Assembly (NCBI GenBank): GCA_038816475.1
Contig: JAWBAI010000003.1
Coordinates: 62,774 to 126,773 of the forward strand
Length of the DNA stretch: 64,000 bases
Source: Desulfurococcaceae archaeon
GTDB taxonomy: Archaea; Thermoproteota; Thermoprotei_A; Sulfolobales; Desulfurococcaceae
Direction of reading: 5' to 3'
Shown: in pieces, positions 9,237-63,672 of the stretch
Layout: each line of letters starts with the position of its first letter
Position numbering within the stretch: the first letter of the stretch is position 1
The notes under the pieces: generated by a model
What the model saw: only the letters and a program-made list of their open reading frames with translations
The model's database searches: none
Told to the model about the DNA's origin: nothing
Made by a program: the position numbers and the translations under genes

Positions 9237-10255
9237 AGTTTCACTCTAGGATCTATCCAGGCATGAACAATGTCTACAACGAGGTTTATCGCGGAATAAA
9301 ACAAAGCTACAAATACTATCGAACCAAGCACAGCCGGGTAATCATGGCTTAAAAGAGACATACCTGCGTAATAACCTACACCGGGCCACACGAACACGAG
9401 TTCGACCATGAAGGCACCTATAATGGTGTAACCAAAACTCAAACCTAGTGAAGCTATTACTGGTGAAATAACGTTCTTTAAAACGTATTTGTAAATGAGT
9501 TTACTTCTACTTATTCCGTTAGCTTCTAAAAATCTTACGAAGTTTTCATTTAAAACTTCAATTGCAATGGATCTAACCATTCTAATCGTGAGACTTAACG
9601 GATAAAGAGATACTGTGATTGCGGGTAAAGCTATTCTTCTAAGCACATCAACGAACACTATCATATTGCCTTGCAATAGCGAATCTAACAGGTAGAAACC
9701 TGTTATTGGTCTAAAACCTGTCGCTAGTACTAAAACAGTATCTATACGCTTACCGGCTGGCAGTATTTTTAGCCATATTCCAAAAACTAACTGTAAAATT
9801 AATGCGGTCCAAAAAACAGGCATGGAAGCTCCTACTATAGCAATGGTTCGGATTATGTCATCCTTTATGCTTCCAATTCTTAAAGCCGAGTAAAAGCCTA
9901 AGGGAATGCCTAAAACCATTGCTATAGTAAACCCTACTACGACCAATTCTAGAGTTGCAGGTAAAGCCGATAGTATGTCCTGAAGAACTTGTTGTCGCGT
10001 TCTCCAGGATACACCCCAGTTACCTTTAAAAAAGTTTTCTAAATAGTAAATTAGCTGAATATGTATTGGTTCATCTAAATGGAGCTCTCGTCTAGCTCTC
10101 TCGATAGCTTCTAGGGGGGCATGAGGTCCTGCCCATAAAATCTCTGGTCGTGCAGGTATGACACGAGTTAGAATAAACGTGATAATGAGGACTCCAAATA
10201 CAACGAGTATAAGTGAAAAAAGTCTTTTCGTAATATATGAATATGTAACCGGCAT
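9233..10255 (-). CDS. Peptide ABC transporter permease (OppB-like)
   Basis: Multi-TM, 'VELVFVWPGVG', 'DIVHAWIDPRVK'. Confidence 0.92.
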   Translation of the reverse strand: MPVTYSYITKRLFSLILVVFGVLIITFILTRVIPARPEILWAGPHAPLEAIERARRELHLDEPIHIQLIYYLENFFKGNWGVSWRTRQQVLQDILSALPATLELVVVGFTIAMVLGIPLGFYSALRIGSIKDDIIRTIAIVGASMPVFWTALILQLVFGIWLKILPAGKRIDTVLVLATGFRPITGFYLLDSLLQGNMIVFVDVLRRIALPAITVSLYPLSLTIRMVRSIAIEVLNENFVRFLEANGISRSKLIYKYVLKNVISPVIASLGLSFGYTIIGAFMVELVFVWPGVGYYAGMSLLSHDYPAVLGSIVFVALFYSAINLVVDIVHAWIDPRVKL

Positions 10256-10270: not shown

Positions 10271-11911
10271 TTACTCCACGACAAGTTTTTGAGCAAATAT
10301 AACGGTTGGATAGCAAGGATTAATAGCTTCATCAAGATTCTTAATACGAGTAGTAGCTACTCTAATATCGATCATATCCCATAGAGGTATGGCGGGAACA
10401 TCCATGTAAAGTATATACTGTGCCTTGTAGTATAGCTCAAGAGCTTTCGCGGGATTCAAGCCTTCGAGTCTATAAGCATCGATTATTATTGCATCAAAGG
10501 TCTGGTTTTCGTAGTAGCATAAATTAAAAGCCTTACTTTCACTATGAAACATGTTGTATAGGTATGTTATCGGTGAAAGAACATCGGGCCACCAGTAGAA
10601 TATGAACAAGTCTTGTACTTCCTCAGGCGTTTCCCATCCCTTTTGAGCTAAAGCCCACTGTTCTTCCCAGGACATAGGCTTTATTTCGACATTTATACCA
10701 ATCTTAGCAAGCGATGCCTTTATTATCTCAGCTGTTCGAGCTTCATAGATGTCACCAGCCGTATACACTAAGGTTAGTGTTCTTGGAATGCCATCCGGAT
10801 ATCCCGCTTCAGCTAGTAACCTCTTGGCAAGATCTAAATCGTAGGTATACGTTAAATTATCGAAGTGACCCCATAAACCGTATGGTATGGGACCACTAGC
10901 TACCCTAGCTAGACCCCCACGTGCTAATTTAACTATGTCTTCATATGGTATGGCATGCGCGATTGCTCTTCTCACGCGAGTGTCATTTAGCGGTGGCTTC
11001 CTGGTGTTTATCAACATTATCAAGTTCTGAAAGCTGGGTTTACGAACAACAACAAAATTCGGATCTCTTTCGAACAACTCAAGATCCTCGATTGGAACGT
11101 ACTGCGCAATATGTATCTCTCCGGCTCTCAGCATTCTACTCTGAGTTGCAGCATCTTTGATAACTTTAATAATGAATACGTCGGGTGCTTTATCAATAGA
11201 GGATCTCCATGGGTAATCAGGCTCTCTCCAACCCCACCACTCTTCCCATTTTTCAAGCACGACTTCAAATTCAGGGTCCCATTTAATTAGCTTATATGGT
11301 CCGCTGCCACACGCATTACCTCTATTAAACCACTCTGCAACTTTAGGATCAACAGAGTCGGTCGCATTGGCGTATTTTACCACGTTGGGGCAGAAGATGT
11401 ATGCAGAATAAGGAGATGCGGCAATTTTTAGTAATGGTGCGGGGTATTTGAGATAGAATCTAATAGTGTATTCGTCTATAACCTCAATTCTCTCCACAGG
11501 GTCCCATATATATGCTGCACCACCACCAAGTAATATTGTTCTGTTGATACTAAAAGCTACAGCTTCAGCATTAACAGGGGATCCATCGTGAAACTTGGCA
11601 CCCTTCCTGATATAGAAAGTCCAAACGGTACCCTCAGGATCGCTCTCCCACCTCTCAGCTAATCCTGGTATGAACTGATCTTTGAACGGATCATACCATA
11701 CTAATGTTTCATATACTAGCGGTAGCCACATTACTGAATTAGAGAACTCTGTACTGGGATCAGCTGTTGTCATTTCAGATAGAGAAGCGTAGATAACAGC
11801 TTTCTTTGGTAATGGTGAAGGCGCTCGAAGCCATATCATAAAGCCAGCTACTATACTAATTATCACAACTACTGCAATAACAGCTAGTAACAAACGCTTA
11901 AGTACGGTCAA
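10271..11911 (-). CDS. ABC transporter substrate-binding protein, family 5 (OppA/DppA-like), N-terminal membrane anchor
   Basis: Hydrophobic N-terminus, 'LVYETLV', 'PGLAERW', 'FHDGSP', 'GSGPYKL', 'RVRRAIAHAI'. Confidence 0.92.
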   Translation of the reverse strand: MTVLKRLLLAVIAVVVIISIVAGFMIWLRAPSPLPKKAVIYASLSEMTTADPSTEFSNSVMWLPLVYETLVWYDPFKDQFIPGLAERWESDPEGTVWTFYIRKGAKFHDGSPVNAEAVAFSINRTILLGGGAAYIWDPVERIEVIDEYTIRFYLKYPAPLLKIAASPYSAYIFCPNVVKYANATDSVDPKVAEWFNRGNACGSGPYKLIKWDPEFEVVLEKWEEWWGWREPDYPWRSSIDKAPDVFIIKVIKDAATQSRMLRAGEIHIAQYVPIEDLELFERDPNFVVVRKPSFQNLIMLINTRKPPLNDTRVRRAIAHAIPYEDIVKLARGGLARVASGPIPYGLWGHFDNLTYTYDLDLAKRLLAEAGYPDGIPRTLTLVYTAGDIYEARTAEIIKASLAKIGINVEIKPMSWEEQWALAQKGWETPEEVQDLFIFYWWPDVLSPITYLYNMFHSESKAFNLCYYENQTFDAIIIDAYRLEGLNPAKALELYYKAQYILYMDVPAIPLWDMIDIRVATTRIKNLDEAINPCYPTVIFAQKLVVE

Positions 11912-33696: not shown

Positions 33697-35050
33697 ATGG
33701 TTAAAAACCACTAATCGTATTCATATTGCTTTGGATTGATATCACTTCTAGCTGATACGGTTCATGAAGAAGCCAGATCTGCTAGTGGAGCATACTTAGA
33801 GTATCTAGCGCTTCTCCAATAGCATTATCAATCGTAGGTGCAGGTGAGCTTATTGGATACACATTAAGGTTTATTGGTGCACTACTTACAACATATTTTG
33901 GGTCGTCCACATCGCTCTGGGGGTTAATCACACTTGAGTACATTTTCAACGTCATGATTCTTCCGTTTCTCACCTTCACGAACAAGTGGATTATTGCTGT
34001 TTCACTATACCTGGTTGGAAGAGTGGGAAAAGGTTTTAGGGCTCCAATAAGAGACTTTGTCTTAGCTGAAGTTACTGAGGATGTTGTCAAAGGTAGGGGG
34101 CTCGCAACTGTTTTTGTGTGCTGGTTTTTGTGGGTTTCTCGTGGATGCTTAGAGCTCTTGACGTGATCATGTTTAGCAATGTTTATAGATCAATGAGTAG
34201 TAATTGCTCTCGGTGACCCTGGGTTTCCGAGACCCATGGCAGACCGTGGGGAGGGGACTCAGGGAAACCGGGATGACCCGCCTTAGGAAAACCTAGAGCG
34301 GGAAACGGTTTTGGATTACATGTATTAATGGATCAAGCTGGAGCATTACCTGCCCCTTGTTATTCGCCTACATGCTTGCAACCCGCGGGTACTCTGATGC
34401 ATACCCTGTTCTCATTATTCCCTGCTTGTTAGTTAAGTTATTCATACCGATAGCATGGTATCTCTACCCAAGAATAGGAAGTGTTGATACAGCTGGAGGG
34501 ATCATATCTATTAGTGGAATTGGTAAAGAATGTTGGTTGTATGTAGTATCAATGATGTTTCAATCACCTGGCTTCATACACTCGACAATAACATCTTATT
34601 TTCTAAAGTACTGGGGGTTCTAGAAGATGCTGAAATAGCATTGTTGTATGCAGTTGCAATGGGGTAGATGCAGTTATAGCTTTTCCAATAGGTTACCTAT
34701 ATGACTTAGTTAAATATAAAAGCCCGCATCTAGCTCCATTATTTACATAGCTACTCACCCCGTTACTAGTGACAAAAACCCGGTGGTAGCGCTATTAGTA
34801 GCTATTCTATGGGGCATAGTAATGGGTACCTCAAAAAACTATGAGAGCTCAATAGCAAATACCACCGGGAAGAATAATAGCTATATCTTATGAATTATTC
34901 GGAATGCTATACGGTGTTTCATGAACTATAGGTGGTTTTGTAACAACAATTCTTATTCAACTATCAGAAGTCACGATAATCGTGTATGTTATAATAACGC
35001 AGTTATTATCAATACTAATGTTGAAGAAGTTAAATGAGCGGGTGAAGTAG
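33697..35050 (+). pseudogene. MFS transporter pseudogene (paralog of 55028-56197) with frameshifts, stops and a 209-bp insertion
   Basis: Fragments FGLISLLADTVHEEARSASGAYL, RVGKGFRAPIRDFVLAEV and GFGLHVLMDQAGA align with LGLVSLLADAVYEGGRSVSGAYL, RIGKGLRAPTRDVILAEV and GFGIHELLDQVGA of the intact copy. Confidence 0.85.
34098..34306 (+). mobile_element. Non-autonomous mini insertion element (MITE-like; probable IS607-family derivative)
   Basis: Removing 34098-34306 restores the reading AAA GGT AGG GGT TTT GGA (KGRGFG). GG occurs at both junctions; no terminal inverted repeats; short direct repeats (GTTTTTGTG x2) at left end; subterminal hairpin at right end. Confidence 0.75.
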
Positions 35051-38573: not shown

Positions 38574-38859
38574 CCCGTGGGCACGGCTTCGCTTGGAATG
38601 CACAACCACACACCAGAGCCATCTCACGCTAGCTCCCTCCGGTGACCCGTGAACGCTGGTGTCCGGGGTTAGGTTGCTCCCTCCCGGGCCTGGCCTGGTT
38701 CCCCCGGCTAAGACGGTTTACCCCCTCTCTACAGAGGGGGCTCCGTCTCCACCAGCCCCACGGGGCGGAGTTCATGGCATCGCGTGAGGGGTGATGTGTG
38801 GTTGTGCATTCCAAGCGATTACTGCCCCAGTACACTGGGGCCTACCCGTGCCCACGGGC
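38574..38859 (-). ncRNA. ffs: Archaeal signal recognition particle (7S) RNA
   Basis: Minus strand contains the helix-8 motif GCCAGGCCC-GGGA-GGGAGCAACC, helix 6 CCCCCTCT-GTAG-AGAGGGGG, a 13-bp terminal helix (38574-38586 with 38846-38858) and an AT-rich TATA-like element about 25 bp upstream. Confidence 0.92.
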
Positions 38860-55027: not shown

Positions 55028-56197
55028 TCACTTTGACATGAGATAAAGGTATAGTACGAGCGACACCATGTTCGAAGTCAGTCCGTAGGAGAGAGCTATA
55101 GTGGGCGTGCTCAGTAGAGTAGTGTAGATGTAGCCTCCTACAGCCCAGAACGCACCGAACGTTACACTGAAAACTCCATACGCTATGGGTCTATTGGATG
55201 GTTCAACTATCCTAGCCAGTGCAGCCCTCATAACGCTCTCCTCTGAGCACATTACGATACCCCATGGTAGAGCTAGTACGTAGACGAAAAACCTCGGTAA
55301 AGCTGGCAGCGCGAAGATCAGTGAGAGAAAAGCGAAGGATAGTAAGGGTAGTGCTATGAACACTTTAAACCCTGCTTTATCGTAGAGAATACCTAGTGGA
55401 ACAGCTACAGCTGCGTCAACAAGCATCGCAGCAGCGTATATTAAGCCGATCTCGTAGTCACTAGCAATGTTCATGGACTTTAAGTAGTACGATGCTATAG
55501 CCCAGTGCATGAACCCCAACGCAAGAAACCCTGAAGCTACTACGTAAATCCAGTAAGCTTTATCTATTCTACGTAGAGTTGATGTGGGCTTTTTCATTGA
55601 AACGCTCCTGAGCGTAGGGTACAACCTGTAAGAAAACACCACTAGAGCTAAAGAGGCTACACCGGGTACTAGTAACAGTATGAAAGCCCATCTATAGCCA
55701 AAGTACGCTACTGCGAAAGCTACCATGAGTGGTCCTATGAAAGCACCAACCTGGTCCAATAGCTCGTGTATTCCGAAACCCTTACCTAACCCCATATCTT
55801 CTGAAACTTCAGCTAGAATAACATCTCTTGTTGGTGCTCTCAACCCCTTACCAATTCTTTCTGCTATGTATAGTGCAACAGCGTAACCCCATGCTGGTGC
55901 AAATGCTAACATTGGTATACCAAAAGCTGTTAATGCGTAGCCAGCTATTGTAAAACCCCATATGATTCCAGATGATTGGTAAATTGTAGCTAAGTAGCCG
56001 GAGAGAAGCCTGAACAAGTGTCCAACGAATTCCCCTAACCCAACGAGTGCAGCACCATAAGCTGGAGCGTTAAGCTCCTTTAAATAAGCACCACTAACAG
56101 ACCTACCACCTTCGTAAACAGCGTCGGCTAAAAGTGATACTAAACCAAGCATGTAGAAAACTATTAACGTCGTGCTCAGCTTGCCGAGTTTACGCAA
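55028..56197 (-). CDS. MFS transporter
   Basis: About 12 TM helices; ADAVYEGGRS, ERIGKGLRAP.RD, LDQVGA. Confidence 0.88.
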   Translation of the reverse strand: MRKLGKLSTTLIVFYMLGLVSLLADAVYEGGRSVSGAYLKELNAPAYGAALVGLGEFVGHLFRLLSGYLATIYQSSGIIWGFTIAGYALTAFGIPMLAFAPAWGYAVALYIAERIGKGLRAPTRDVILAEVSEDMGLGKGFGIHELLDQVGAFIGPLMVAFAVAYFGYRWAFILLLVPGVASLALVVFSYRLYPTLRSVSMKKPTSTLRRIDKAYWIYVVASGFLALGFMHWAIASYYLKSMNIASDYEIGLIYAAAMLVDAAVAVPLGILYDKAGFKVFIALPLLSFAFLSLIFALPALPRFFVYVLALPWGIVMCSEESVMRAALARIVEPSNRPIAYGVFSVTFGAFWAVGGYIYTTLLSTPTIALSYGLTSNMVSLVLYLYLMSK

Positions 56198-63564: not shown

Positions 63565-63672
63565 GCCGCCGTAGTATAGCCCGGTCAAGTATGCGGGCCT
63601 CTCGAGCCCGTGACACCCTTATAGGTCCGTAGCAGGGTGCGGGACACCCGGGTTCAAATCCCGGCGGCGGCA
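63565..63672 (+). tRNA. tRNA-Glu(CTC) with a 33-nt intron at non-canonical position 45/46 (63613-63645)
   Basis: GCCGCCG acceptor stem, CGGGC-CTCTCGA-GCCCG anticodon arm, CCGGG-TTCAAAT-CCCGG T arm; the extra segment forms a bulge-helix-bulge. Confidence 0.95.

Follow-up and report, generated by a model that had tools for sequence, protein, structure and literature searches.

A protein-free IS607-like mini element with a putative guide-RNA cassette in a Desulfurococcaceae contig

An insertion in a decayed transporter gene

The stretch of DNA analyzed here, referred to below as the window, comprises 64,000 nucleotides of a Desulfurococcaceae archaeon (assembly GCA_038816475.1, contig JAWBAI010000003.1, positions 62,774 to 126,773), and on its forward strand a gene of the major facilitator superfamily (MFS) is split by a protein-free insertion of 209 bp, which is classed here as a non-autonomous element, or miniature inverted-repeat transposable element (MITE), on the basis of its clean excision in silico and of the homologous copies described below. 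The 5' part of the MFS pseudogene (33724..34099, +) runs through two frames and ends in ..K G R G, and its 3' continuation (34309..34620, +) contains further frame changes and stops; both parts were delineated by tblastn with an intact MFS paralog (55028..56197, −; PF07690, E 6e-26), which also served to rebuild the empty site. A 102-aa open reading frame (ORF) at 33782-34090 (−) is an antisense artefact inside the pseudogene.

The match to the paralog breaks at 34100 after ..VKGRG and picks up at 34301-34309 with GFGLHVLMDQ, and joining 34099 to 34309 yields V K G R G F G L H V L M D Q, for which the paralog has the colinear sequence G K G F G I H E L L D Q. Because this joining restores both frame and colinearity, the insertion is placed at 34100-34308 (209 bp, +). 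The initial annotation of this DNA had proposed a protein-free insertion of this length with GG at both junctions and no terminal inverted repeats, and the paralog match and the exactly restored frame bear this out. At the left junction GG occupies 34098..34099 (+), as it also does in the two other copies (L003 and L007), and would be the target or crossover dinucleotide, and at the right junction GG (34307..34308, +) forms the final bases of the element (..ACGG), identically in L003 and L007. No terminal inverted repeat was found in the window copy, but its relatives have an imperfect subterminal one.

Several further features can be recognized between these junctions. The left end contains two 9-nt direct repeats (34110-34118 and 34124-34132, +), probably transposase-binding motifs, in which GTTTTTGTG occurs twice, 14 bp apart; the initial annotation had noted tandem repeats here. 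The sequence is found at 34110 and 34124 only in the whole window, for which the chance expectation is 0.62 matches. The repeats are conserved in L007 and partly conserved in L003, and the right end shows degenerate GGTTTCC-like motifs only. Overlapping the second repeat, on the minus strand, 34123..34170 resembles the last 16 codons of the TnpB-like gene of the 376-aa protein encoded by the full-length relative (tblastn, 10/16 identical); at E 0.41 this remnant is not significant alone, and its position agrees colinearly with the alignment of the left ends at the DNA level. A TATA-like box, TTTATAGA, lies at 34182..34189 (+), 22 nt ahead of a conserved GC-rich block that starts at 34212, which agrees with what had been claimed for the promoter. 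The right flank (34309..34328, +), which starts with TTTT, would be the guide if transcription reads through the junction, by analogy with the omega-RNAs of IS607 TnpB proteins. At the equivalent positions the intact paralog differs from this flank at 5 of the first 16, counted by eye, the same figure as in the initial annotation.

A second copy of the element is absent from the window, and blastn of the element against phage and plasmid collections gave no match. A scan for bacterial promoters and terminators returned no sites, with bacterial models that are not applicable to an archaeal host.

Copies of the element and a full-length relative

A genome scan with an 18-mer from the apex hairpin of the GC-rich block returned nine loci, of which two, L003 and L007, are real copies and the remaining seven are bacterial matches of 18-20 nt only, attributable to chance. 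The two copies lie on different scaffolds of one metagenome-assembled genome (MAG) of Ignisphaera sp. L003 is a short, intergenic copy (L003:9873-10066) which matches the window copy with 83% identity over 34108-34295 and shows an internal deletion of the same structure. In L007 the left and right ends lie ~1.13 kb apart in an element of ~1.31 kb, with a single 376-codon ORF between them. All three DNA copies start after GG and end in ..AAACGG, with GG at both junctions, and the expectation of the initial annotation that copies with the same ends would be found at GG sites is thereby confirmed.

The L007 locus (L007:8411-11844, −) is a nested insertion, in which the 1.3-kb element lies inside the tnpA gene of an IS607-type element. 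The interrupted tnpA encodes a serine recombinase in two pieces (11218-11844 and 9732-9890; NF033518 match, E 8e-45) and is followed by a canonical 445-aa TnpB (L007:8411-9748); removing the insert restores the tnpA frame (..R-F-G-F-K-T-L..). One TnpB-type element has here inactivated the transposase of another. The L007 junctions share GGTT, and two extra bases are hence ambiguous with respect to a target duplication.

A protein search whose query was a spurious ORF over the block in L003 (L003:9963-10175) returned five candidate proteins (P0121-P0125), all of which are translations of the block, from other Ignisphaera and Desulfurococcaceae MAGs. Two of them have the flank of L003 and three have others, which brings the known insertion sites to six distinct flanks, and in P0125 a left part of the short type lies upstream of the block. 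The short form of the element is MITE-like, or like a palindrome-associated transposable element (PATE), in being protein-free, in keeping both ends of a longer parent and in occurring at several sites. The two candidates in which the L003 insertion recurs with an identical flank are P0121 and P0122, and since this flank is found in two further MAG-derived proteins the L003 insertion must be old. At the right junction P0122 has D where L003 has G, which implies a change of GG to GA. In several MAGs the block has been annotated by gene callers as a small hypothetical protein.

The element ends

In the available text of PMC6188088, the IS607 family is described as having GG termini and a GG target, unrelated termini without terminal inverted repeats, and no target duplication, together with short direct repeats and an inverted repeat that is imperfect and whose arms lie at different distances from the two ends. 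The present family agrees with this description at its GG junctions and in the GG(G) of both empty sites that were rebuilt (window and L007); the pair of 9-mers at the left end may correspond to the direct repeats. L007 has a subterminal inverted repeat of 15 nt (93%) whose arms lie 20-34 nt (left) and 12-26 nt (right) from the respective ends, and one internal pair of L007, which indicates the level expected by chance, equals it in quality; the corresponding repeat in L003 comprises 14 nt at 93% and extends to 37 nt at 73%. Judged from these sequence features, the ends of the element are of IS607 type. None of the three copies encodes a serine-recombinase TnpA, and the element can hence be no more than a non-autonomous relative of the IS607 family.

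A structured RNA block at the right end

The GC-rich block (34212..34308, +), which was delimited by its fold, its conservation and a covariance model, is a structured RNA block that may serve as an omega-RNA-like scaffold. Its minimum-energy fold on the plus strand consists of an outer stem (34208-34214/34267-34273), a long stem (34217-34228/34253-34264) capped by an apex hairpin (34233-34250), and a second hairpin (34277-34302), followed by the tail AAACGG (34303-34308), which is the right end of the element. The plus strand of 34205-34310 folds with -60.5 kcal/mol (z -6.35), and none of 200 shuffled sequences was as stable; for the minus strand the values are -42.9 kcal/mol and z -2.99, and folding is better with RNA than with DNA parameters. 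The extensive folding that had been claimed for the block is confirmed, all three of the hairpins named in the initial annotation being present in the minimum-energy fold. The corresponding z values are -4.99 for L007 and -3.56 for L003.

The G+C content of the block (0.63-0.65) is the highest in the element (0.38-0.57 elsewhere), and the block is also its most conserved part: between the window copy and L003, 92 of 97 positions are identical in the block (95%), compared with 75 of 112 in the rest of the element (67%; Fisher p 2e-7). A TATA-like box lies 22-24 nt upstream of the block in all three copies (24 nt in L003 and L007), and in L007 it stands between the start of the RNA and the ATG of the divergent ORF, where it is possible that RNA and ORF share a bidirectional promoter. 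The sole substitution in the long stem (34257, A/G) keeps the pair with U34224, as U-A or U.G. A covariance model, R1, recovers all three copies and nothing else in the 236 kb searched. The scaffold ends at the ..ACGG terminus in every copy, and the two empty sites that were rebuilt read GGGG and CGGG before the flank at which the right end of the element reads ACGG. This agrees with the claim that the RNA runs to the right end, the scaffold stopping at ..CGG and the empty sites reading ..GGG, and for these two sites it would be compatible with a left flank that resembles a transposon-associated motif (TAM).

Three other readings were considered. The block is not a coding sequence, given that the frame left open in L003 is closed by a stop in the window copy and that an 11-nt indel separates copies. 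A canonical omega-RNA was rejected, since the sense-strand 3' end of the ORF, where it would lie, shows no structure (z 0.03) and is poorly conserved. No bulge-helix-bulge motif, which would indicate excision at the RNA level, is evident in the fold. Just before the second hairpin the RNA contains GUGAUGA in L003 (10036-10042) and in L007 (9976-9982) and GGGAUGA in the window (34270-34276), which we take to resemble a box C or K-turn motif.

The protein of the full-length relative

The 376-aa ORF is the only gene of the 1.3-kb parent and lies on the strand opposite the RNA, the two diverging from one TATA box. Its protein reaches the Pfam and NCBIfam TnpB models only below threshold, over residues ~313-343; neither the protein nor its profile matched any PDB sequence, and tblastn against phage and plasmid collections gave no match. 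An alignment of its family profile by hhalign to the canonical 445-aa TnpB that adjoins it in L007 revealed no relation. Among 3429 candidates scored there are 491 homologs at E<=1e-3, from hyperthermophilic archaea (named sources include Ignisphaera, Zestosphaera, Staphylothermus, Sulfolobales, Vulcanisaeta, Pyrococcus and Thermococcus), and homologs carry the label PF27229 (SSO2105_N). A profile search of 1.84 billion representatives returned 310 at E<=1e-3, of which 144 reach <=1e-10 and 38 reach <=1e-30. Many of the representatives are fragments of 50-120 aa that match only the last ~50-100 residues, and such fragments could be deletion derivatives that keep the left end, or fragments at contig ends. 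The literature search found no publication on PF27229 or SSO2105, and for ISC1316 nothing that was relevant by title.

An AlphaFold (AF2) model built from 44 sequences has a pLDDT (predicted local distance difference test) of 89.6 and a pTM (predicted TM-score) of 0.83, and its best PDB matches by Foldseek are Cas12k, Cas12f and ISDra2 TnpB (E 1.7e-9 to 1.2e-6, TMq 0.5-0.6, probability 1.00), so that the modelled protein has a TnpB/Cas12f fold. In the family alignment D216 is nearly invariant, E280 invariant, D353 nearly invariant and H355 invariant, and a zinc finger is absent. The third motif reads D353-x-H355 (D-R/K-H) where typical TnpB proteins read DRD.

Interpretation

The reading preferred here, to which a probability of about 0.55 is assigned, is that the window element is an internal-deletion, guide-only derivative of an IS607-like archaeal element of ~1.3 kb, and that the nuclease of this parent uses the RNA. 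For the proposed use of the RNA a comparison can be made with CboIStron, a tested element of the IS607 family: in the part of PMC10690162 that was available, transposase and TnpB of CboIStron both prefer TGGG (TAM TGGG), the omega-RNA scaffold ends in UCGG, and G versus C at position -3 spares the occupied site. Since the empty sites GGGG and CGGG stand against the right end ACGG in the same way, an omega-RNA-like guide is the likeliest mechanism, with the conserved block as scaffold and the right flank as guide for the 376-aa nuclease.

Under this mechanism the parent would carry, besides the nuclease gene, an RNA gene of ~97 nt, divergent from it at a common TATA region and ending in ..ACGG at the right end. 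A deletion would have removed the protein gene, and what remained would be both ends (the left one with its direct repeats and 16 terminal codons), the TATA box and the RNA gene. An IS607-type serine recombinase supplied in trans would move the element by exchange at GG. The RNA would start near 34212, cross the right junction and take the flank as its 3' guide, and the TnpB-like nuclease of a full-length copy would load the RNA of the mini element, cutting empty sites (..GGG plus flank) and sparing occupied sites (..CGG plus flank). Cutting of empty but not of occupied sites would favour retention of the element.

The interpretation given in the initial annotation is partly supported and was right in kind, in that the locus is a mini element of IS607-like type which contains a guide-RNA-like cassette and whose parent bears a TnpB gene. 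The annotation had supposed that tnpA and tnpB were lost and that the ends, a promoter and the RNA were kept, and had called for a full-length tnpA/tnpB parent; L007, with its TnpB-fold gene and both ends in common, is a parent of this kind as regards tnpB, but it contains no tnpA. The omega-RNA-like nature of the cassette agrees with a structured RNA at the right end, but the nuclease is distant, zinc-finger-less and divergently encoded. A broader proposal, which is put forward tentatively and falls short of even odds, is that the archaeal zinc-finger-less D-E-H family of TnpB proteins uses a stand-alone guide RNA gene which lies outside the tnpB transcript, has its own promoter, diverges from the nuclease gene at a common TATA box and is read outward through the right end of an IS607-like element, and that guide-only hyperparasites such as the window element persist for this reason: a self-contained guide gene would allow deletion derivatives to survive by borrowing both transposase and nuclease.

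A number of observations weigh against the preferred reading. With regard to the RNA, transcription by archaeal RNA polymerase may already end at the TTTT with which the flank starts, and no guide would then be produced. Covariation among the three copies, which are nearly identical sequences, is practically nil, and P0121 and P0122 imply a G-to-A change that breaks a pair in the second hairpin (nucleotides inferred from amino acids). No Rfam 15 family matches the block when the whole window is searched at the gathering score, and at E<10 the region 33900-34500 yields only sX5 (E 9.3). With regard to the protein, its link to the RNA rests on one full-length copy (L007), and the third catalytic position may, on the motif in the alignment, be His and not Asp, which renders its activity uncertain. 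The RNA lies upstream of the nuclease gene and on the opposite strand; in the described loci the omega-RNA is downstream of tnpB (PMC10691335, in the part available), and the literature search, which covered parts of papers, found no description of an inverted or own-promoter arrangement. The available parts of PMC12558985 and PMC13565253 do not describe such elements. With regard to mobility, the analysis detected no serine recombinase gene in an element with matching ends, and the interrupted IS607-type element of L007 was rejected as parent or end-sharing partner, having only chance-level 8-11-mers in common with the insert. The window copy itself lacks 11 nt of the right inverted-repeat arm, a loss which may have immobilised it; its site is a decayed pseudogene, in which the tblastn alignment with the paralog reveals at least three further frame changes, and stops, apart from the insertion (33724-34620); and none of the 54 window ORFs scanned is a transposase or TnpB-like gene.

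Among the competing explanations, two retain the element and reinterpret the block. The block could be the recombination site of the right end only, that is, transposase-bound DNA without a functional RNA, conserved for the needs of mobility. Such an account draws on the right arm of the subterminal inverted repeat and the several GGTTTCC-like motifs, in both orientations, that the block contains, and on the observation, in the available part of PMC6188088, that an IS607 end can be covered by its transposase over as much as ~80 bp. It is nevertheless considered unlikely: variation is greatest in the second hairpin, which bears the inverted repeat and has indels of 11-12 nt, whereas the positions that hardly vary are those at 40-97 nt from the end; conservation of the left end, to which transposase must bind as well, is only ~67-73%; the spacing of the TATA box is fixed in all three copies, and the folding is strand-asymmetric and includes G.U pairs. 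Somewhat less credible still is an RNA that is made and is not a guide, with a regulatory or structural role, for example in control of the nuclease gene or of transposition, or in binding L7Ae through the K-turn-like GAUGA. The RNA has its own TATA box and in L007 a promoter region in common with the ORF, and L003 and L007 contain the C-box-like GUGAUGA, which may be a K-turn; but it does not overlap the ORF and is therefore not an antisense RNA, the only protein of the parent has the fold of an RNA-guided nuclease, and the RNA abuts the transposon end exactly, with ..CGG as in those IS607 omega-RNA scaffolds for which the sources consulted give the terminus.

The other two explanations concern the manner of movement, and both are regarded as very improbable. 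The element could be a PATE of the IS200/IS605 type, whose movement as single-stranded DNA would depend on the recognition of end hairpins by a Y1 (HUH) transposase, given that the parent is a tnpB-only element like those of the IS1341 group, that the available part of PMC10055086 describes omega-RNA-carrying PATEs for IS200/IS605, and that the right end also folds as DNA (z -3.3). GG at both junctions in all three copies and the unequal subterminal inverted repeat instead fit IS607; moreover, a conserved hairpin is missing from the left end (z -0.08), folding as DNA is much weaker than folding as RNA, and there is no conserved target of 4-5 nt apart from GG. Alternatively, the TnpB-like protein and the RNA might suffice for mobility by RNA-guided homing or copying, with no dedicated transposase, as could be supposed from the facts that no copy encodes a transposase and that no tnpA element with matching ends was found. 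The sample in which these facts were established comprises three DNA copies only, however, and homing alone would not provide the integration step that is required for insertions at six unrelated sites, while the ends have classic IS607 features.

Comparison with known systems

The family resembles the IS607 family (IS607, IS1535, ISC1926 and CboIStron) in its GG termini and target, in its lack of terminal inverted repeats and in an imperfect inverted repeat whose arms are unequally distant from the ends, possibly also in the short direct repeats of one end, and, as far as the available account of CboIStron goes, in a putative scaffold that reads ..CGG at the right end where the empty site reads ..GGG. 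It differs in having no serine recombinase gene in any copy seen here, in the inversion of the TnpB-like gene relative to the RNA and the right end, and in an RNA with its own TATA box and no overlap with the nuclease ORF. PATEs are protein-free mini elements of IS200/IS605 which, according to the part of PMC10055086 available, "often encode" omega-RNAs that are used in trans; within the limits of that account the present element is like them in being protein-free, in having both ends and a guide-RNA-like gene, and in that it would depend on a nuclease encoded elsewhere. Unlike PATEs, it has ends of IS607 type (GG) and not of the hairpin/Y1 type, and it resides in an archaeal hyperthermophilic host with the RNA under a putative internal archaeal promoter.

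As for the protein, the TnpB clade RIIIr-4 of the 2023 classification of TnpB and Cas12 is described, in the available part of PMC10691335, as zinc-finger-less and with the RuvC-III Asp replaced by His. The 376-aa family, which has no C4 zinc finger and reads D-R/K-H for DRD, is set beside this clade by motifs and not by phylogeny; unlike the clade as described in that part, it is small (310 representatives) and archaeal and has no ribbon-helix-helix (RHH)/MazE partner gene. With the tnpB-only elements of the IS1341 group the parent has in common a length of ~1.3 kb, a single TnpB-fold gene and no transposase, but its junctions and ends are IS607-like, and its guide-like RNA is upstream and antisense of the gene. 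The guide of IscB and IsrB omega-RNAs is at the 5' end of the RNA, whereas the putative guide is here at the 3' end. Their loci, as presented in the available part of PMC10691335, also have the RNA gene upstream of the nuclease gene, but with RNA and gene on the same strand, and not divergent as here, and the protein here has a TnpB and not an IscB fold.

If the RNA is a guide, it would provide a first handle on a compact (376 aa, ~97-nt scaffold), thermostable and uncharacterised branch of TnpB, the first guide for the zinc-finger-less D-E-H clade, and the first omega-RNA to be independent of its nuclease gene in strand as well as in promoter. A separable guide gene would then explain both the origin and the survival of protein-free, guide-only elements, and the idea of guide-carrying mini elements would be extended from bacterial IS200/IS605 to archaeal IS607-like elements. 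The conserved block is in addition a ready search model for annotating such elements, the use of which would remove false small hypothetical proteins in MAGs.

Setting of the window

The window has the character of a housekeeping region in a chromosome of crenarchaeal type, with a G+C content of 36-47% in 2-kb windows. Its products include a family-B DNA polymerase, proteasome subunits, an FttA-like beta-CASP/KH termination factor and ATP-binding cassette (ABC) transporters, and it contains an archaeal signal recognition particle (SRP) RNA (38580-38852) and two tRNAs. A 108-nt tRNA at 63565-63672, called by Rfam with 51 bits and not reported by ARAGORN, is probably an archaeal tRNA with an intron.

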